Origin: a virus
Taxonomy: Duplodnaviria > Caudoviricetes
Strand: one strand, 5' to 3'
DNA: 64,000 nucleotides
IMG/VR virus record: IMGVR_UViG_3300028886_000059
Coordinates: 32,001-96,000 of that record
Shown here piece by piece: positions 9,729 to 19,217 of the stretch (position 1 is the stretch's first letter; every line of letters starts with the position of its first letter). Position numbers and translations under genes: made by a program. The notes beneath the pieces are model-generated. The model was not told the DNA's origin, searched no databases, and saw nothing but the letters and a program-made list of their open reading frames with translations.

Positions 9729-10388
9729 TTAGACAACACGCCTTGCCATTCGGCTGTGACTCAATCTCCTTGCCCTGTACCAGTCATCGAAGCTGGCGAA
9801 CTCATCCCGTTCCGTATCGTCATCGTCCAGCGTTTGCAGAAATGCCGTCTGCATGGGGCTGACTGTTCGGTAGCCGTAACTGTCGATGTGGTTCAGGTTG
9901 GAGTACAGTCTGCCATTGAATCTGATGAACTGGCCAAACGTCCTGACGTTCCCGTTCTCGTCCATCATGGCGAACTTTGAATAGCCGATTATCTTGTCAA
10001 TTACCCTCGTCACATACGATGACTTGAATCCGTACTTCTGTATGGCTGGGTAGATGATATTCTGAAATGCGGTCTCGCTGTCTGTCATATCCCCTTCGGG
10101 TCTGATGCTCAGAATGCCGTTGTGGGCAAACCAAATGTTTCCGCGATTGAAGGGATGGCAGTTGGCCTTGCACTTGCTGCCGTGCGTTGCCAGTCTGAAA
10201 TGTATGATACACGCCTCCTCCTTCGGTACTTTGTGTATGTACTTCAAGAAGGTCTCAAAGTTCATGCCCTTATAGTGATGGCTCTTGCTGACGAATCCGC
10301 ATCCGTGCGGGTTTCTGCGATGGGCGTTTCTTAACTCGGTATCTGTTGGTAACTGCTGGCCTGCGGCCTTTATGATGATAACACACAT
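9729..10388 (-). CDS. Class II (Ntn) glutamine amidotransferase
   Basis: N-terminal MC, NPHGCG, HFRLATHG, NCHPF, AHNG and TDSE motifs. Confidence 0.9.
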   Translation of the reverse strand: MCVIIIKAAGQQLPTDTELRNAHRRNPHGCGFVSKSHHYKGMNFETFLKYIHKVPKEEACIIHFRLATHGSKCKANCHPFNRGNIWFAHNGILSIRPEGDMTDSETAFQNIIYPAIQKYGFKSSYVTRVIDKIIGYSKFAMMDENGNVRTFGQFIRFNGRLYSNLNHIDSYGYRTVSPMQTAFLQTLDDDDTERDEFASFDDWYRARRLSHSRMARRVV

Positions 10389-10482
10389 AATATTCTTATT
10401 TTAATTTGTTGATGATATGATAATGTTTGATTTTTGGCCGTTTGCGGCCTGTGTGCAGGGCTTTCGCCCTGCTTGCCTGTAG

Positions 10483-11397
10483 TTATTGTGCCTGTCTTGC
10501 AAATTCGCGCTGGCGACGCTTGAAATATGCCTTTTCGTCGTTTGTCAAGAAAGGTATCTCGTCGATGCTGGCGATTGGGCGGGTGAGTCTGTTGTCGCGT
10601 GACCAAACCACCAGCTTTGCACAGAATGAAATCCAGTTAGAAATCTTCTCGTAATCCGTGCTGCCCTGATGCTGGCGAAACTCGATTGTACGGTGGCGTG
10701 ACCATGAACAAGCATTCACCTTGAAATATCTGTCATTGCCGAAAGCGTTGCAGACATCCTCCTGTGTGTGGCAGTTTGCCAAACGCTTGCCGATTATTGA
10801 CTCGCAATAGGTGTTATTGTTTGCCCTGCGGCTTCCTGCCATGAAGGTGTCGATAAGGGTCTCAAGCATCTGATAGTTTACGAATACGCTGACGTACTGC
10901 TCGCCTGTCAAGTCCTTTGCACCGATATGAACGTGCAAGCCTGTTGTCCTGTTGACCTTTGCACCAGCGGCATTCAATGTGGCGCAAGCCTTTTTCAGTG
11001 ATGCCAAACCGTTACGGCCTTTAAGCACTGGAGTAACACATTCGATGCAGCCGCTGTCGCTGTAGCCCTGTGCGTTTCTGATGCTGCCGTCTGTCACGAA
11101 CTTGAAAACGCTGTTGCTGTCGTGATGGTTGTAGCCCTGATATTCAAGGGGTAGGCCATTCTCCGCACCGATTCTCTGTATAAGACTGCGGTCAACGTTA
11201 TAGGTCTCCATCTCGACTCCGAAAGTAACGGTGAACTTCTTCGATGTTGCGGGGATGTATGCACCTGCATCATTGCCAAGAATGATTGTGATTTCGTCAC
11301 GGGTGATGCCCAGCTTCAGGAGTTCAATAACCTTTGCACTCTTTGCCATGCGACCGTTCTTAATCTCGCTTACCTGTTCTGAAAGTGACTTTGCCAT
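10483..11397 (-). CDS. Putative amidoligase (Amidoligase_2 / COOH-NH2 ligase family)
   Basis: TFGVEME, DGSI, ECVTPVL, TGLHVHIG and TIEFRQHQG motifs; ATG 11397 chosen because the upstream part is promoter/leader. Confidence 0.88.
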   Translation of the reverse strand: MAKSLSEQVSEIKNGRMAKSAKVIELLKLGITRDEITIILGNDAGAYIPATSKKFTVTFGVEMETYNVDRSLIQRIGAENGLPLEYQGYNHHDSNSVFKFVTDGSIRNAQGYSDSGCIECVTPVLKGRNGLASLKKACATLNAAGAKVNRTTGLHVHIGAKDLTGEQYVSVFVNYQMLETLIDTFMAGSRRANNNTYCESIIGKRLANCHTQEDVCNAFGNDRYFKVNACSWSRHRTIEFRQHQGSTDYEKISNWISFCAKLVVWSRDNRLTRPIASIDEIPFLTNDEKAYFKRRQREFARQAQ

Positions 11398-11530
11398 AAT
11401 TCTTTGTGCCTGTTTGGTCAGTCGGCTCTTCTGTTCTAAATGGGTTGTTATGTTGTTTGATGTTGCAAAGGTAAGCAAATAAATTTAAACTACCAAATTT
11501 TTCAGCGAAAAAATAAAGTTATTTGCTTTA
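11398..11530 (-). promoter_or_regulatory. Early-type promoter, operator pair and conserved leader
   Basis: TTTG-N20-TACCTTTG, two AAGCAAATAA boxes, TTTAGAAC..GCCGAC..AAACAGGCA leader. Confidence 0.75.
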
Positions 11531-11655
11531 TTTAACATTTGAAGCGGTTTTTGAAGCACATACACCTTATTATATATATAAATAGGCTGCAAATAAAGCG
11601 TTTTAAGACGTTCTTTTCATTGCAGCCTATAGAATACCAAAGAAAGCGATTTAAT

Positions 11656-12279
11656 TTATCTGCCGCCTGTTCTGATGCCATAGATAAGCCAAATTTCATC
11701 AATGGCCATCTCCAAGTCTGCAAGAAACTGGCGAAACTCAAAAGGCTTGATAGGTCTTTTTCTGCCTGTCAGAAAATCGACCCTGACGAACATGTTCACC
11801 AAATCGAACTCAGAAAGCGACCCTTCGGAATAGTTCAGGAGCGCACTGGCATACATCGAATAGTGCAGCGTGGCCTCCTTTCTGAACCGTGGAAGTCTGC
11901 CTCCGTCATACAGTGCCTTGCAGAACGTGTCATAGTCTGCAAGTTCAAAGGGATAGATGCCATACGACTGCAATGTTTTTACTATCTCGCGGAAATTCCC
12001 GTGCAGGTCGATGTACTGGTTGCACATGTCATCCTGCGACATCGGCTTTCTTTCAGGATTCGGAAACCCGTTCATCATCATGTTCAGGTTGAAATTCTCC
12101 ACATCCTTAAACGATTCTCCACCAATGGCCATCTGCCTGAAATCTTCCGCAGCCGACCATGAGCAGAAAGCCACCGTAAGCCCGCATCCGAGTATAAGCC
12201 GTGTCTTCCGAAACGCCGAGACTTCATCCGTCGGCATCCGTAGCTTCTGAATAGTTGGTAAACTGAAATGCTTCATCAC
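11656..12279 (-). CDS. Hypothetical phage protein
   Basis: 207 aa ORF in the co-oriented gene run. Confidence 0.55.
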   Translation of the reverse strand: MMKHFSLPTIQKLRMPTDEVSAFRKTRLILGCGLTVAFCSWSAAEDFRQMAIGGESFKDVENFNLNMMMNGFPNPERKPMSQDDMCNQYIDLHGNFREIVKTLQSYGIYPFELADYDTFCKALYDGGRLPRFRKEATLHYSMYASALLNYSEGSLSEFDLVNMFVRVDFLTGRKRPIKPFEFRQFLADLEMAIDEIWLIYGIRTGGR

Positions 12280-12478
12280 TTTCTGCTTTCACACTTATGA
12301 CAGGTCTTGTCATCCAACTTCTGATTCCAGTAGGTACAGAAACGGCCAGTAGGCTGCTTGATGTCAAACCTGCATTTGCCGTGCTTCTTCCGTCGGTCAA
12401 TGTCACGTTTTGAACCTATCGCGCTACTGGGCTTCTTTACCAAATTTCGGCAGATTTCTTTCAGACCTTCTTTTGTGT

Positions 12479-12880
12479 TCATACCTTCAATTCCATTATG
12501 CCGCCAGCAATCTTGTAGTAAGCCTGTTGCAGTTCATGCAGGCAGCTGATGCAGCCGTAACGCTTCCACTCGTTGCTTGGTGTCTTGATAAAAACACTGT
12601 CAATGTCCTGCGACATGGTATAGAACACCTTGGCACGGGTTCCGTACATGATGCAGCCCTGCGTCTCGTCATGCCTGAATCCGAAACGCTCCAGCAGCCG
12701 TACTTCCGTCAGGCTGATGCCCTCCAGCTTGTCAGGCTCAAAGTAGCCCTTCTCATCAAGATAGACGCTGTTCTGCGACAGTTCCATCACACAGCCAATC
12801 CTGCTGCCGCTGACTGGCACGTTTACCTTCGTCCTGACAACATCCCCGATGTGCAGGTCTCTGATAGTCATTCCGTTCAT
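12479..12880 (-). CDS. Hypothetical protein (DL.IGD.V / I.LTE family, paralog of 12877 and 16748)
   Basis: Shared DLHIGDVV...ISLTE...LHELQQ pattern. Confidence 0.6.
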   Translation of the reverse strand: MNGMTIRDLHIGDVVRTKVNVPVSGSRIGCVMELSQNSVYLDEKGYFEPDKLEGISLTEVRLLERFGFRHDETQGCIMYGTRAKVFYTMSQDIDSVFIKTPSNEWKRYGCISCLHELQQAYYKIAGGIMELKV

Positions 12881-13302
12881 TTCTTCACCTTCTTTTGTTT
12901 AGGTACTCTGACTTTCAACTCACCACGGCCATGCTTCCATGCCATCTGTTGAACAACATGCAGAAAAGCCCGCTTGGGATTCAGGTACTCGACAAACTGG
13001 CCGTTACCGTGGTTGATGGTAAGGTGTGCGCCGCCGTCATTCAGCAAATCGACACGCGCCGACACGCCATCGCCCTTGAAGCTGATGACAACGCCATCCA
13101 CCTTTGCACCCACCACCTTCAACGCTTCCGTATCAGTCAGCGCAACAGGCTCGGCCTCGCCCAAATGTACGATGGTCATTGTGTTCTCGTCAAAGGCATC
13201 TGTACGCCCGATAGTTCCGATTTGGTGCAGTTCGCCATTGAAGCGCACCACGTCGCCAGCGTGTAAGTCACGGCCAGCCATTTTCATTTTCTTCTGTTCC
13301 AT
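12877..13302 (-). CDS. Hypothetical protein (same paralog family)
   Basis: DLHAGDVV...EPVALTD...LHVVQQ. Confidence 0.6.
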   Translation of the reverse strand: MEQKKMKMAGRDLHAGDVVRFNGELHQIGTIGRTDAFDENTMTIVHLGEAEPVALTDTEALKVVGAKVDGVVISFKGDGVSARVDLLNDGGAHLTINHGNGQFVEYLNPKRAFLHVVQQMAWKHGRGELKVRVPKQKKVKK

Positions 13303-13435
13303 TTTGATTCCCGTTTTTGTCGTTTCTTCTTTGATTCGTTTCTTCGCCGTTCTGTTTCACACGGCCTGACACCTTGGCAGGAGCATCCGTTTCCGTATGT
13401 TCTGCTTCGGGTATAGTATTTGCATGATGAACACT

Positions 13436-13771
13436 TCATAACCTTCTTTGCGGCTCGTTCTTTATGCAGTCACTAACATATCCGTCGATGTCGATTTCAA
13501 ACATCGTCATTCCGAGAGAGTTGCAGCCGACTTGCGCCGTCTGATAGCCAGTCTTTGCCTTATCGCCGTACTTATGGATTTCTTCTACAAACATCCTGTC
13601 AATACTTGCAGGGTTCGTGATATGCGGGTTCTGACGCTTAAACGTCTCTTTCCGCGATTCCACCGTAGCGGCCAACTGTTTGACAAGGCTAAGATTCTCG
13701 CGCAATTCCTTGATTCCGTTCTGTAGCGTCATCAGGTCATACATGAACGCCTCATTTACCTCCGCTTTCAT
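13436..13771 (-). CDS. Hypothetical phage protein
   Basis: 111 aa ORF overlapping the upstream gene end. Confidence 0.5.
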   Translation of the reverse strand: MKAEVNEAFMYDLMTLQNGIKELRENLSLVKQLAATVESRKETFKRQNPHITNPASIDRMFVEEIHKYGDKAKTGYQTAQVGCNSLGMTMFEIDIDGYVSDCIKNEPQRRL

Positions 13772-14129
13772 ACTTATCCGAATTTTGTTTCAGCCATTTC
13801 ACACATCCGATGATGTTCTCAAAAAGCGTTCCACCGTCGAATGATTCAAGGTGTAAATCATAGTCGATGCAGAAATACGTCACCTCTTCACCGAATATGC
13901 AGCGGTCATAAACAATGCCATCTTCATCTTTCAGTGTCAGCGGCAAAAGGTTCATCAATGCCGCCAGCGACCAGCACGGCACGGCATTATTAGCCCATTC
14001 CGACGTGATTCTGTAGCCTCCGACAGTAGGGATTCGGTACAGGTCAGCCGTATCGGGATTGATACCCAAATCGGCCAGCTGTGCCTCCTGCTTCCGCGTC
14101 GTACAATACTGTTTCTCTTCCATACGCAT
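13752..14129 (-). CDS. Hypothetical Bacteroidales phage protein (PCWSL.AL motif)
   Basis: T..Q...L...GI.P.TAD...PCWSLAALMNLLP pattern. Confidence 0.6.
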   Translation of the reverse strand: MRMEEKQYCTTRKQEAQLADLGINPDTADLYRIPTVGGYRITSEWANNAVPCWSLAALMNLLPLTLKDEDGIVYDRCIFGEEVTYFCIDYDLHLESFDGGTLFENIIGCVKWLKQNSDKYESGGK

Positions 14130-14132
14130 GAT

Positions 14133-14159
14133 GGCGGGGCTGTAAGAACAGCCCTCGCC
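14133..14159 (-). promoter_or_regulatory. GC-rich hairpin just 3' of the DGR-type variable region
   Basis: GGCG-A-GGGCTGT-TCTT-ACAGCCC-CGCC. Confidence 0.6.
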
Positions 14160-14171
14160 GAATGTAGAATG

Positions 14172-14848
14172 TTAAATGTTAAATGCGGCCACAGGGCGAA
14201 CAACGACCTGCTGGGAGACTTGCCGCCGGTGTTGACGAGACCAGTAGTGAAAAGCACGTACCAAGCATAGTAGCTGCTGTACTCAGTAACAGACCAGTAG
14301 TATTCTTCCATATCGAATGGCTCGCCGCCAACAAATTTTAACGCTTCATTCAGCCCTTTGTCGGCATAGTGACACATCAGCACCAGCATAGGCAATGCAG
14401 GGATGCACTCACCACCTGCCAGCGGTATGTCCGTTCCGATTTCCTGAATGTGCTTCGTGCGCTCCACACACTCCCAATCCAGCAGGGCATCACATTCACG
14501 ACGGCGGTACGATGGATGTTCCGACGGGCATTTGTCGGTGTCCTGTACCAGTGCATACTTGCCAAGGTCTTTCAATGCCACACAGAAAGAATGGCCGTCA
14601 TGCACGATTCCGATGTACTTCACGCCCTTTGCATCTGACTTGTCATTGTCGCCAGTGTACGGCTTATAGCCGCCATCCTCATAGACAAGGTACAGACCGT
14701 TAGGCACTGTGTTTCCGCTGGCCACGGCCACGGGTGCAGGCTTACTTACTTCGCGCTTTTCACCAGCCATAATGAAATCCAAGGCTTTCTGCGCATCTTC
14801 TCCAAATTCACGGTATAGTTCCAACCGCATTTGCTGATTCTCTGTCAT
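14172..14848 (-). pseudogene. DGR target-like protein (DUF1566/C-type lectin fold) with a 1-nt frameshift in the variable region
   Basis: YYWSVTEY...AWYV.F..G.V; the canonical VVRPVAAF end lies in another frame, with the shift near 14208. Confidence 0.75.
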
Positions 14849-15429
14849 GTTTTTTATTGTTTTTAAATATGTATTCTTTGGTCGTTTATCAGATTCCGAC
14901 GCTCTTTCTTTCATTGCAAGACACAATGCCAAGGCCACAGGATTAGGCTCAACGCTTTTCGCCTTATTGACATTTTCCAATACATAGATAGCACCAGCAT
15001 GAAAGGCATCTTCAATTTCGATGTCATAATGCTTTTGCATACCTTCATCAAGTTGTTTCCTCGCATCACTGCTGACTTTAACCTTTTCGCAGTATTCTTG
15101 CGCCTTTTCTGTAATCGGTAACTTAATCATTTCTTCATCTGATTTAATTGTTCGTAATACTGTTTGTTGGAGAATTGCGGGGTATTCCACGCTTCGCGCT
15201 TCCGTGCCAGCTGCTTCTCCTTGCGCTGCTGATAGACCCTGTTCATACTACTTATTCTTTTTGCGTTTCTTTTTCTTCTTAGGCGGGGTGTAGTTCGACC
15301 CTTTGCCCCACTTAGTGCCACCACACACAGACGGCACAATCTTACGCAGCTTTTCAGCCCTGTCCTTTATCTTCATGCAGGTCTCATAGACTTGCGGGTG
15401 TTCCACCTTGCAGCATTCGCATCCCATAG

Positions 15430-15711
15430 CTATACCAGTTGTTTGATTGTATCGTATGCAGCGCGTATTTCATCCGCATGTTCCTTTGCGAACCTGTCAA
15501 AAGCACCTTCACCACCGAAAACCTCATCCAGTCGTGGCATGATGTCACCGATAGGATTCAGCCAAGAGTCTTTTTTGCATTCTTCGGGTGAATAGATGGC
15601 TATCAAACCAGCATTGCCGCCGAAATGCAGACACATGGCGAAATAAGCCGCCAACTTGTTTTCCGCTTCGATTGAGTATTTACTACTCATTGCACCATAT
15701 TCAATTACCAT
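15430..15711 (-). CDS. Hypothetical phage protein
   Basis: 93 aa ORF. Confidence 0.5.
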   Translation of the reverse strand: MVIEYGAMSSKYSIEAENKLAAYFAMCLHFGGNAGLIAIYSPEECKKDSWLNPIGDIMPRLDEVFGGEGAFDRFAKEHADEIRAAYDTIKQLV

Positions 15712-15761
15712 AGCCTTATGTCTTTAAGAATAATATTTTCGTTAATGTTCATGTCCTGTAT

Positions 15762-16067
15762 TTAATAACCGTAATAATGTCCTAATTCAACCTCTCTCCG
15801 ACTCAGGCGATAGCGTTTGCCAACATTGAACTTGTAATAACTGCTTGCAGAGCATTCGACAGGTCGCAATTCACCCGTTTCTGCATCTTTCATTACGACA
15901 TAGTACACCGTTTCCACAACCTGTTTCTCGGTGAAGAAATTGTAGTGTGAGCCTACATCCTTAGACTTTTCCACTACTTCATAGACGCGCTGCTCCCTTT
16001 GGCCGTCACAATCCGAATTTGACATGCAGACCAGCGCAATAAATACAATGATAAATAAACGTTTCAT
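15762..16067 (-). CDS. Exported or lipoprotein-like small protein
   Basis: Basic-hydrophobic N-terminus followed by Cys. Confidence 0.5.
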   Translation of the reverse strand: MKRLFIIVFIALVCMSNSDCDGQREQRVYEVVEKSKDVGSHYNFFTEKQVVETVYYVVMKDAETGELRPVECSASSYYKFNVGKRYRLSRREVELGHYYGY

Positions 16068-16073
16068 ATACTA

Positions 16074-16382
16074 TTACTTATTTAGTTCCTTCCATTGCAG
16101 TACGGCTTCATACACCGTCTTTGCAGGTTCTATCCCAGCATCATGCAGGGCATCGTTCACACCTTCCATGATTGCATCAACATCCAAGTAATCATCGTAT
16201 GGGTCAAAGAACTCGGCAACGGCATCCTCACAGCAAAGGTGCATCCGCTGGTCGTCAATTTCGCCGTCAGTGACATAGACGTTATGCTGATACTTCTCGC
16301 CCTTCTTGATGACAGCACCGCAAAACAGGCATCTGTGCTCCTTGCTGGCTACGGGCTGTTCCTGACGTAACACCTCAACCAT
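16074..16382 (-). CDS. Zn-finger hypothetical protein
   Basis: A.KEHRCxxC...IKKGEKY...HxxC motif. Confidence 0.55.
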   Translation of the reverse strand: MVEVLRQEQPVASKEHRCLFCGAVIKKGEKYQHNVYVTDGEIDDQRMHLCCEDAVAEFFDPYDDYLDVDAIMEGVNDALHDAGIEPAKTVYEAVLQWKELNK

Positions 16383-16388
16383 ACTTTT

Positions 16389-16751
16389 TTATTTAGTTCG
16401 CAAAACCTTTACCATCGTGACATAATGCTCATCTTTCCGATGAAGTATATATCCCATCCTCACATACCAGTCGCAAAGCCAGTCGAAGTTACTACAGCTT
16501 TTATCTACGTCAAGCTGCATGAAAGACCTGTTGTTTATAATGGCTATCTTTTCGCATTTCTCCATCAGCATCTTTCCGATATTCTTTCTTCTTTGGCTTT
16601 CATCCACGATAAGCCCCTTGACAAATGCCGTTGAAGGGCAGTCGTTTTCAAGTTGCAATTCCACTGACGCAATCCCGTTACGTTCTATCAGTGTTATAGT
16701 CCTGCCCCACCACCAATCAACCGATATTCTTGTCAAATTGTCATACATCAT
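16389..16751 (-). CDS. GNAT acetyltransferase
   Basis: LIVDESQRRKNIGKMLM motif A and WYVRMGY. Confidence 0.8.
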   Translation of the reverse strand: MMYDNLTRISVDWWWGRTITLIERNGIASVELQLENDCPSTAFVKGLIVDESQRRKNIGKMLMEKCEKIAIINNRSFMQLDVDKSCSNFDWLCDWYVRMGYILHRKDEHYVTMVKVLRTK

Positions 16752-17179
16752 AATTCTTCGTTTATGATTCTTTCCTCGATTTCCCTTGATAACGCTGGCA
16801 TGTCAGGATTCAATTCTTTACCCGTCAAGTCGCGGTAGATGTGCTGCAACTGATGAAGAAACTCGACCTTCCACGGTATTGCCCTGCAAGCGGGTGAGCC
16901 GAATCCAACCACGCCAACGGTCTTTTGCATGGGATGGTAAGAAATGACATCGTTCTCGTTCAGCTGGAGAATGCCGTTTTTGTCGAAGCCGCACAGTTCC
17001 AGCACCCTTTCAGAAAGTGGTACAGGCATCAACTCTTCGTGATTCACCTCTTCAATATTGTTGTCACGGTCAGCACACTTGCAATATGTCTGCACGGTGA
17101 TGATTTTCAGCACACCCAGCCCATGCAGGTGGCAGAACCAGTCATCAACCCTTATATCATGTAGATTCAGCAGTTCCAT
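16748..17179 (-). CDS. Hypothetical protein (paralog of 12479 and 12877)
   Basis: PVPLSERVLELCGF...LHQLQH. Confidence 0.6.
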   Translation of the reverse strand: MELLNLHDIRVDDWFCHLHGLGVLKIITVQTYCKCADRDNNIEEVNHEELMPVPLSERVLELCGFDKNGILQLNENDVISYHPMQKTVGVVGFGSPACRAIPWKVEFLHQLQHIYRDLTGKELNPDMPALSREIEERIINEEL

Positions 17180-17183
17180 AGCG

Positions 17184-18146
17184 TTACGAATTTGCGATTA
17201 TACCATTTGTGAATCGGTCATAGTACACATCGACATCCATGCCGAAATAGAACTTGATACCATGAATGTTACTCATAGTCTCCAGCAGGTCATCCAGTTC
17301 GCCCAAAGACTTCTTTCCGAAATTCCGCTGCTTCAACAGGTCAATCTTATGGCACTTCACCAAATCGCCGAAGGTCTCCAAGTCTGCGGCCTTTAGGCAG
17401 TTCAGCGACCTTACCGTAAGATTCATGTCAACAAGCCTTGTGTTCAGAAGCCCCAATATCTCCTTATCCTGTTCCGACAATTCGCCCATAGCCTTTTCTT
17501 CTGCGGTCTTGTGCTTATCCTGCTCGACCTTGATATTCAGTTTCTCACGCAATTCTGCCAGTTCTGCATCCTGTTTCTTCAACAGGCTGCGCATCATCTT
17601 GTTTTCGGCTTCTGTCTCGTTACACCTGTTCAGCACGTCACCATAGGGCTCAAGGCTTCCCAGCTTCCGCATACCCTTCTCGATAATTTGCCTTGTGCGC
17701 TCACGGGTAATGCCGTACTCGTCACCGATGGCTTCAAATTCCGAACCGTCCAAGTATTCTTTCAGAACACTTCGCTCACGCTCAGACATTATCTCGTTAT
17801 CTACGCAATCTATCATCGTATGAATCATGCGAATCAGTCTTGACGGCCTTTCCATGCCGTTGACCATAGCGACATCCAGCATCCATTGGTCGCTGGCCTG
17901 CCTCAGCTTGTGAACCATTTCGTAATTCTTCTGCTGCAATTCCTTGATGGCCTTTTCAGATTCGGCCAAGTCTTGCAGAGAGTCGAACAGTTTCGTAATG
18001 GTGTCTCTGTCAACCATCAGCCACTTGCCGACCTGCTTTGCACGGAGTACGCCCTTGCTGCACCAGTTCGTTATGGTCTGCGGGTCAACGCGGAGCATTT
18101 CCGCTGCCTCCTGCCTTGAAATCATTCTGCTTTCACTGCTTTTCAT
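17184..18146 (-). CDS. Transcription regulator: HTH_17 + sigma70 region 4 + RNAP alpha-CTD
   Basis: [20 protein letters not shown]; [23 protein letters not shown]; [12 protein letters not shown]...RNFGKKSL. Confidence 0.85.
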
Positions 18147-18566
18147 ACCTTTATATTCATGTTTCGTTTTATCGTCTTTACTGCGGTCTCACGCTTTCCG
18201 TTCACCCACGTCTCTAACTTGGTGTCGTAGAAAACCCCAAATTCGAGGTTGTCATGTCGGCGCATATATATATCGCTGCCGCAACCGTCGAAGTCTGCCA
18301 TGAACACCACGGCGAACCCTTCACCGTGAATGCCCCACAACCCTTTATAGATGCCGTCGGGTACTGGCACACGCTCTACATGTGTGTGCCGATAGTTCAA
18401 CGCTTTCAGGATGGCGTTCAGCCCGTCATTCGTCTGCATGTCATCTTCATGCTTGTGCTCGATGATGACCTTTGCGATGACCGTAAAACGCCCGTTCCAA
18501 AGCATCTTCTCGACGATTACCTCGTCTTTGGTGCTGTAGCTGATGCCGAATACCTTTGCCATAGTC

Positions 18567-19217
18567 TTATTCGTTGTCGCCCCACAATTTTCTTGCAAGG
18601 TCGAGATTCTTCTGTGCCTCGTTGACCGCTTTCTTCGCGTATGTCAGCGAATAGGCATGTTCACGCGGGTATTTGCCGCTCTTCAAGCCCTGATGATACT
18701 CGATGGCATCTTCCAGCTTCTTAGCGTAGTAGTCGATGCTTTCAGGCATTGACAGGTTGATGTCATCGGTATGCTGCGCCCATCCTTCGGCCTTGTCACG
18801 GTAGGCTTCGGCCTTATCCATTTCAGCGGCCATCTTTCCAGTATTGCGCCAAGCGTCCTCAATGGCCTTGCGGTGTCTGCGCTCACTGTGATGGCCGACC
18901 TTGATAGGCTCACCCAGCGAAAGAAAGTCTGCATCCTTATTCGACTTGTCAAAATACTCGTCTGCCCGCTTGTCAGCGTTTGCCGCTGCCTGTTCATAGC
19001 GTTCAGCCTTGCGCCTTGCCCGCTCCTGCATGTTGTAGCCGTCGGCACGGGTGATGGAGTAGTAATAGAACCCGTCACGCACAAAGATAAGGTTGTGAAC
19101 GATGCTTTCATTCTCCTTTCCGTACTTCGTCGTTACTGCGATAACCTCGCCCTTTTCGTGCTTTGCATCGCACTTTGCCAAAAATACGTTTGGTGCAAAC
19201 TTGTGATATGTATTCAT
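18567..19217 (-). CDS. DUF3560 domain protein
   Basis: LGEPIKVGHHSERRHRK motif. Confidence 0.85.
   Translation of the reverse strand: MNTYHKFAPNVFLAKCDAKHEKGEVIAVTTKYGKENESIVHNLIFVRDGFYYYSITRADGYNMQERARRKAERYEQAAANADKRADEYFDKSNKDADFLSLGEPIKVGHHSERRHRKAIEDAWRNTGKMAAEMDKAEAYRDKAEGWAQHTDDINLSMPESIDYYAKKLEDAIEYHQGLKSGKYPREHAYSLTYAKKAVNEAQKNLDLARKLWGDNE

Follow-up and report, generated by a model that had tools for sequence, protein, structure and literature searches.

A frameshifted variable repeat in a second, distant target of a Bacteroidota phage DGR

According to Benler et al. 2021 (PMC8008677), the DGR of Quimbyvirus diversifies one structural protein and one distal, presumably non-structural protein; the latter has a C-type-lectin fold and is encoded in an island of accessory or defence-related character. 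In the Bacuni phages, the small DUF1566 target was put forward as a putative fimbrial-tip adhesin (Hedzet et al. 2021, PMC8143477). According to Wu et al. 2018 (PMC5758913), the template repeat (TR) and the variable repeat (VR) differ in length in about 7% of DGRs; 11 of 25 cases with TR/VR indels were frameshifting, and 74% of the indels adjoin AAC, which was attributed to slippage of the reverse transcriptase (RT). The literature already contains remote targets in phages, small DUF1566 targets and VR indels that shift the frame.

We analysed a stretch of 64,000 nucleotides, the window, that spans bases 32001-96000 of a viral contig of 116,414 nt (CheckV 98%). A first-pass annotation had seen in it a DGR target with RT and template outside the window, frameshifted in its variable repeat, and our results support this reading. 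We propose, with a probability of about 0.7 for the joint reading including the retrohoming mechanism, that the region is the variable repeat (VR2) of a second, non-adjacent target of the single DGR in a ~116-kb Bacteroidota phage. Within Bacteroidota, the host group of this phage is probably Prevotella. The features around VR2 are, in window coordinates:

15130 to 14172, minus strand: DGR target gene, ~319 codons when intact, with VR2 at its 3' end
14210..15130, minus strand: in-frame body of the target gene (ORF call), the final codon before the break being AGC
14183..14300, minus strand: VR2, 118 nt against the 116-nt template (alignment to TR)
14208..14209, minus strand: the frameshift, two bases (AG) too many where the template has its last AAC codon
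14183..14204, minus strand: 22-nt block identical in TR, VR1 and VR2, with an IMH-like start; 3' boundary of mutagenesis
14172..14207, minus strand: displaced normal gene end, VVVRPVAAFNI and TAA stop, now out of frame
13955..14207, minus strand: out-of-frame read-through tail of 84 codons, product of the frameshift, overlapping the next gene
14133..14159, minus strand: GC-rich inverted repeat (hairpin/cruciform); inner stem 7 bp, outer stem 4 bp, loop 4 nt
13752..14129, minus strand: downstream gene of 125 aa, with its ATG at 14129, conserved beside the target in relatives

The in-frame body encodes an N-terminal helical part followed by a DUF1566/C-type-lectin domain, whose fold occupies the last ~180 residues of the gene product. 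It is 94% identical to an intact orthologue of 319 aa (P0002). On the minus strand, the ORF runs from the ATG at 15130 to 13955, with a GTG at 15190. The gene start had earlier been placed at 14848, a position that we correct: gene callers and orthologues begin at 15130 (ATG, MIKLP...). The ~95-115 N-terminal codons added in this way (14848-15130, minus strand) are found in the target of the window phage and of its closest relatives, where they are predicted as helical with lower confidence; most family members, of 220-230 aa, do without them. The usual start of the family is MTENQ..., and it is preceded by an A-rich stretch, so that internal initiation at 14848 is possible. Judged by eye, the N-terminus of the target is acidic and helical, and is not a signal peptide. 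As for the 125-aa gene downstream, it is overlapped by the read-through tail made by the frameshift, and no match to it was found in Pfam or PHROG.

The scaffold YWSVTE..AW.V.F..G.V is present on the minus strand, as first described, and of the 24 codons that separate GAG from the break, 21 have C or T in the third position. The break itself reads AGC-AG-GTC, in which AG stands for bases 14208-14209; AGCAGGTC is the sequence at 14205-14212, spanning these two extra bases. The target ORF reads ...EEYYWSVTEYSSYYAWYVLFTTGLVNTGGKSPS and continues into an unrelated tail of 84 residues, a tail that none of the orthologues has. The normal ending, VVVRPVAAFNI-stop (14207-14172), indeed lies in a different frame from the upstream gene, and the orthologues in L006 and L011 keep the frame across this site. 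The frameshift therefore stands as originally called, but not as a deletion: measured against the template, the lesion is a net insertion of two bases, which turns into a one-base deletion only on the assumption of an extra codon. A frameshift encoded in the template was considered and rejected, as the TR has 116 nt, equal to the intact VRs. In the AF2 model of the intact orthologue, the VVRPVAAF segment forms the last two strands of the lectin domain. With these strands replaced by out-of-frame sequence that runs over the next gene, the frameshifted protein is most likely a null allele.

The template and the RT gene, both absent from the window as the first-pass annotation had remarked, turned up when the rest of the genome was searched for them: they lie in the same contig, ~47 kb (short arc) or 69 kb away. 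A search of the contig with the VR region returned three further VR copies, all on the minus strand. TR, RT and an Avd-like gene are located at genome 114.15-116.19 kb; the order of the core on the minus strand is the first target of 2250 aa ending in VR1, the Avd-like protein, TR and RT. In coordinates of the whole contig (genome), these are:

genome 88-6840, minus strand: first target gene, 2250 aa, ending in VR1 and reached from the DGR core across the contig junction
genome 115652-116185 (L005:2219-2752), minus strand: Avd-like ORF of 177 aa, between VR1 and TR
genome 115440-115555, minus strand: TR, 116 nt with 38 adenines, mostly in AAC/AAT codons

The RT ORF, of 502 codons, is directly downstream of the TR. 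Its best PDB match is the DGR RT of BPP-1 (8ub7_A, E 5.7e-22), and its motifs read IGNLTTQLFAN and FVDD where those of the BPP-1 enzyme (bRT) read IGSLTSQLFAN and YMDD. It matches PHROG 1423 (E 4e-54); its Pfam RVT_1 score is below the cut-off (21.7 vs 29.6 bits). The TR is placed in frame inside a 5' extension of the RT ORF (genome 114151-115659; L005:718-2226, minus strand), and no ATG occurs between the TR and the first RT motif aligning with bRT residue 15. From its sequence, the RT would start either upstream of the TR, carrying a TR-encoded peptide, or at a non-ATG codon such as GTG within the 3' end of the TR.

The Avd-like protein is recognised by its predicted fold only, since Pfam, NCBIfam, PHROGs and PDB sequence searches (phmmer, profile) returned nothing useful. 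Its AF2 model (pLDDT 78) is a four-helix bundle, for which the top Foldseek matches are 2gsc (TMt 0.88-0.90), the Avd chain 8ub7_B (0.77), 2rld and the Avd structure 4dwl (0.82), all with a probability of 1.0 but with E values of only 5e-3 to 0.09. The protein possesses a basic N-terminal extension and an inserted loop, and its family counts at least 56 relatives in gut metagenomes.

The two ends of the contig (genome 1-221 and 116191-116414) are one locus, with an overlap of 221/224 nt. They are identical over the first 127 nt; beyond, they differ only inside VR1, of which each end carries its own adenine-mutagenised variant; one of the two has a +3 insertion. The matching ends imply that the genome is circular or terminally redundant, whereas the IMG/VR entry is linear and without end repeats. 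The assembly broke on the heterogeneous VR1.

The comparison of each VR with the TR gave:

VR2: 19 substitutions at A and one T-to-C; +2 nt at the last AAC codon (14208-14209)
VR1a: 14 substitutions, all at A; no indel
VR1b: 20 substitutions, all at A; +3 nt in the (AAC)4 run

With 38 A in 116 positions, the probability that at least 19 of 20 changes in VR2 fall on adenines by chance is 8.5e-9. The single non-adenine change, T to C, adjoins the indel. The analysis shows that VR2 is a member of this DGR, that it has a template from which it differs in the A-specific pattern, that it is frameshifted against both that template and the orthologues, and that its cis elements are intact.

These cis elements lie 3' of VR2. 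TR and VR sequences diverge directly after the 22-nt block that they share. The GC hairpin noticed earlier after VR2 is borne out by its DNA fold of -12.8 kcal/mol (z = -5.6; none of 200 shuffles folded as well). VR1 is also followed by a matching hairpin (z -3.1), whose outer stem differs from that of VR2 by compensatory changes; no hairpin was found after the TR. Such a layout of IMH and inverted repeat is the one known for DGRs (PMC5758913). The flank of VR2, made of the stop, the hairpin and the next start, equals that of the intact orthologue L011 except for 2 bases before the hairpin (CT vs TC), and an exact-pattern scan of metagenome contigs returned no match to the hairpin flank. The hairpin was also considered as an intrinsic terminator and rejected in this role, as it has no T-run and the ATG of the next gene (14129) comes directly after it.

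A complete relative (G001, IMGVR_UViG_3300012007_000001, 119 kb, with direct terminal repeats) has the same layout as the window phage. Its TR, VR1 and VR2 are each 116 nt long and in frame, and its VR2 gene ends in ...VVRPVAAFNI-stop. The templates of the window phage and of this relative differ at non-adenines (CGC vs CGT; AAT-ACT vs AAC-AAT), and in each genome both VRs carry the non-adenine version of their own template. TR sequence has therefore reached VR2 since the two phages diverged. Judged by its sequence, VR2 is in all likelihood a live target.

A protein search returned 84 cluster representatives, mostly of 220-230 aa, some of which go by the name of DUF1566 protein and come from MAGs of Prevotella or Bacteroidaceae. 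Of these clusters, the two nearest to the window protein comprise 25 members each, and 30 of the members were listed. Those listed at >90% identity are in frame and end in VVRPVAAF(NI or IYDI), the exceptions being two partial sequences and the window product itself. The near-identical orthologues (about 50) vary almost only at adenine-templated codons, with a mean column entropy of 1.35 in variable codons vs 0.27 elsewhere. Orthologues are also polymorphic in length at the (AAC)n run, of 4-6 residues, and the intact L011, 94% identical to the window target, has an in-frame +3 insertion in the AAC run of its VR2. The frameshifted product of the window (P0091, 391 aa) is found on 4 contigs from JGI/IMG, ENA and Logan assemblies. 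Among GenBank phages, blastn gave no match to the locus.

A second, independent VR frameshift, with a net change of -1, occurs in a related lineage. The VRs of P0045 and P0114 have 128 nt (L012:1380-1507 and L013:1851-1978) vs 129 nt in the intact P0113 (L014:2086-2214), and the frameshift allele of P0045 is identical in at least 4 samples.

In the AF2 model of the intact orthologue P0002, residues 145-319 have a pLDDT above 93. Aligned with VIA-align, the model gave Z 16.2 with 4eps, a fimbrial tip protein of B. ovatus, Z 10.7 with the C-terminal domain of Legionella Lcl (8q4e) and Z 5.3 with Mtd (1yu0); many C-type lectins, including the DGR targets Mtd and TvpA, are found at Z about 5. The frameshifted product reaches 16.3 bits vs the cut-off of 34.9 for DUF1566/Lcl_C (PF07603), and a precomputed PF07603 match exists in several intact relatives. 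The first-pass annotation had suggested a non-adhesin target; candidate functions for the small DUF1566 family are adhesin, virion decoration and intracellular binder. The genomic setting of the target is the following:

window 9729-19217, minus strand: accessory island of ~10 kb, flanked on one side by portal and terminase and on the other by the gene of the major capsid protein, all on one strand

The genes of the island include amidoligase_2, GATase_4 (class-II GATase-like), a GNAT acetyltransferase and DUF3560, and one island protein combines HTH_17, sigma70_r4 and the RNAP alpha-CTD. The locus had been called an early-type accessory island; an accessory island it is, but with such genes on both sides and on the same strand, it is not clearly 'early'. 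In the lineage of L014, homologues of the target are found among MutS_I, Rv2179c-like exonuclease, YopX and methylase genes.

We now propose how the frameshift arose. By analogy with BPP-1, a complex of RT and Avd would copy the template RNA into cDNA, placing random bases opposite adenines. The cDNA would then replace the VR of any gene that has the matching 3' homology block and GC hairpin, in this phage both VR1 and VR2. The last retrohoming event at VR2, or a slip during it, may have added two bases at the final AAC codon; with them, the protein would lose the last strands of its lectin fold (VVVRPVAAFNI) and continue with 84 unrelated residues. A later round of retrohoming should restore the open frame.

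An insertion of +2 at an AAC codon, taken together with the in-frame +3 insertions in the AAC runs of VR1b and of the L011 VR2, makes an indel introduced by the RT the simplest reading. The break is within the tract rewritten by retrohoming, just upstream of the 22-nt block, and the cis elements are intact, so that overwriting is to be expected on the mechanism of BPP-1, as summarised in PMC5758913, and the frameshift is presumably reversible by retrohoming. The first-pass annotation had taken the indel as a possible by-product of retrohoming, open to repair in a later round; this fits the AAC position, the in-frame indels in the AAC runs of VR1 and of relatives' VR2, and the intact cis elements. 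Repair would not be fast, given that the P0045 allele is unchanged across several samples. One may go further and see in such DGR-made frameshifts a reversible OFF switch (phase variation) for a dispensable non-structural target, one that recurs as the remote target amid replication or anti-defence genes in several Bacteroidota phage lineages; retrohoming would silence and later re-open it, with OFF alleles persisting across samples when the protein is a liability. We consider this extension distinctly improbable.

The extra bases might instead be an artefact of assembly or sequencing in a hypervariable region, the true VR2 of the population being in frame. It is true that the same assembly failed to close the circle at the heterogeneous VR1 and ends with different VR1 variants, that the other listed relatives at >90% identity are in frame, and that the frameshifted allele was not met again when contigs of JGI metagenomes and of IMG/VR were scanned for exact matches. 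However, the identical 391-aa product is present on 4 contigs of different lengths from three assembly sources, even if these 4 contigs may come from one read set. The contig, broken at VR1, is unbroken through VR2, which suggests one dominant allele there; chimeric joins of in-frame variants at shared k-mers would preserve the register, and a comparable frameshift recurs in at least 4 samples of the related lineage. We hold an artefact to be unlikely on this evidence. It is very unlikely, in turn, that VR2 is a decaying target, in which an ordinary replication slip broke an unneeded gene without repair. The T-to-C change beside the indel is not expected from adenine mutagenesis, the frameshift allele of P0045 stays the same in several samples and the gene, placed in an accessory island, is probably dispensable; yet a decaying repeat fits poorly with only one non-adenine difference in 116 positions and with the presence of template-specific non-A bases in VR2. 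Moreover, the 3' block, the hairpin and the flanks equal those of the intact relative except for 2 bases before the hairpin, and the indel coincides with an AAC codon, the kind of site at which indels of DGRs concentrate (PMC5758913).

Programmed ribosomal frameshifting, by which the frame would be restored and the whole protein made, is hardly credible. The template is in frame and exactly as long as the relative's intact VRs; the site, C-AGC-AGG-TCG, has neither an X-XXY-YYZ slippery heptamer nor CGG, and only a shift of -1 or +2 would serve there; the feature exists in this allele and in none of its about 50 near-identical relatives. A CGG-type +1 skip was rejected as well, for there is no CGG at the site and its direction is wrong.

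We retain as the most likely reading a remote target that received a frameshift from its own DGR. The locus is a clean natural example of a phage DGR serving a target tens of kilobases from its template, and this distant service is proven by the template-specific non-adenine bases copied into both VRs. The mutagenic process also yields indels at AAC codons and may knock out its target; a naturally null allele suggests that the protein is dispensable for propagation. For annotation, the lesson is that heterogeneous VRs break assemblies and hide terminal overlaps.

Compared with known systems, the core resembles that of Bordetella phage BPP-1 (mtd-VR, avd, TR, brt) in its order of target with VR, Avd, TR and RT. 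The two also share A-specific differences between TR and VR, a C-type-lectin fold with the VR at its 3' end, a GC-containing block that is the same in VR and TR and ends both before they diverge, and a GC hairpin whose loop has 4 nt and which follows the VR but not the TR. In contrast to BPP-1, the window phage has a second target 47-69 kb away, and its lectin domain is of the DUF1566/Lcl_C type and not Mtd-like (Z 10.7 vs 5.3). Its Avd is longer (177 aa) and undetected by sequence profiles, and its TR forms part of the 5' extension of the RT ORF, in frame with it.

Like the cases of Wu et al. 2018, VR2 carries a frameshifting indel at an AAC codon of the template, while the other target of the same DGR shows canonical changes and an in-frame indel only. 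Those authors read such indels as possible extra diversity; here loss of function is likelier, as the conserved last strands are removed.

Quimbyvirus is, like the window phage, a Bacteroidota gut phage, but it belongs to a different phage family, and there it is the RT that is frameshifted and not the VR. The DGR of the Bacuni phages F1/F2/F4 of Bacteroides uniformis (PMC8143477) likewise has two DUF1566 targets, of which the first adjoins the RT. The second, Bacuni_F1_00026 (224 aa), is distant from it and homologous to the window protein (32% identity, E 2e-26), and these two homologues both match the fimbrial tip protein 4EPS of B. ovatus; the gene of Bacuni_F1_00026 has DNA polymerase A and a cytosine methylase as neighbours, in a region of replication and methylase genes. 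The Bacuni genomes measure 40 kb vs 116 kb here, no frameshifted VR was reported for these phages, and their authors took the targets to be adhesins. Altogether, the small DUF1566 family is repeatedly the distal DGR target, outside the tail modules, in gut Bacteroidota phages.
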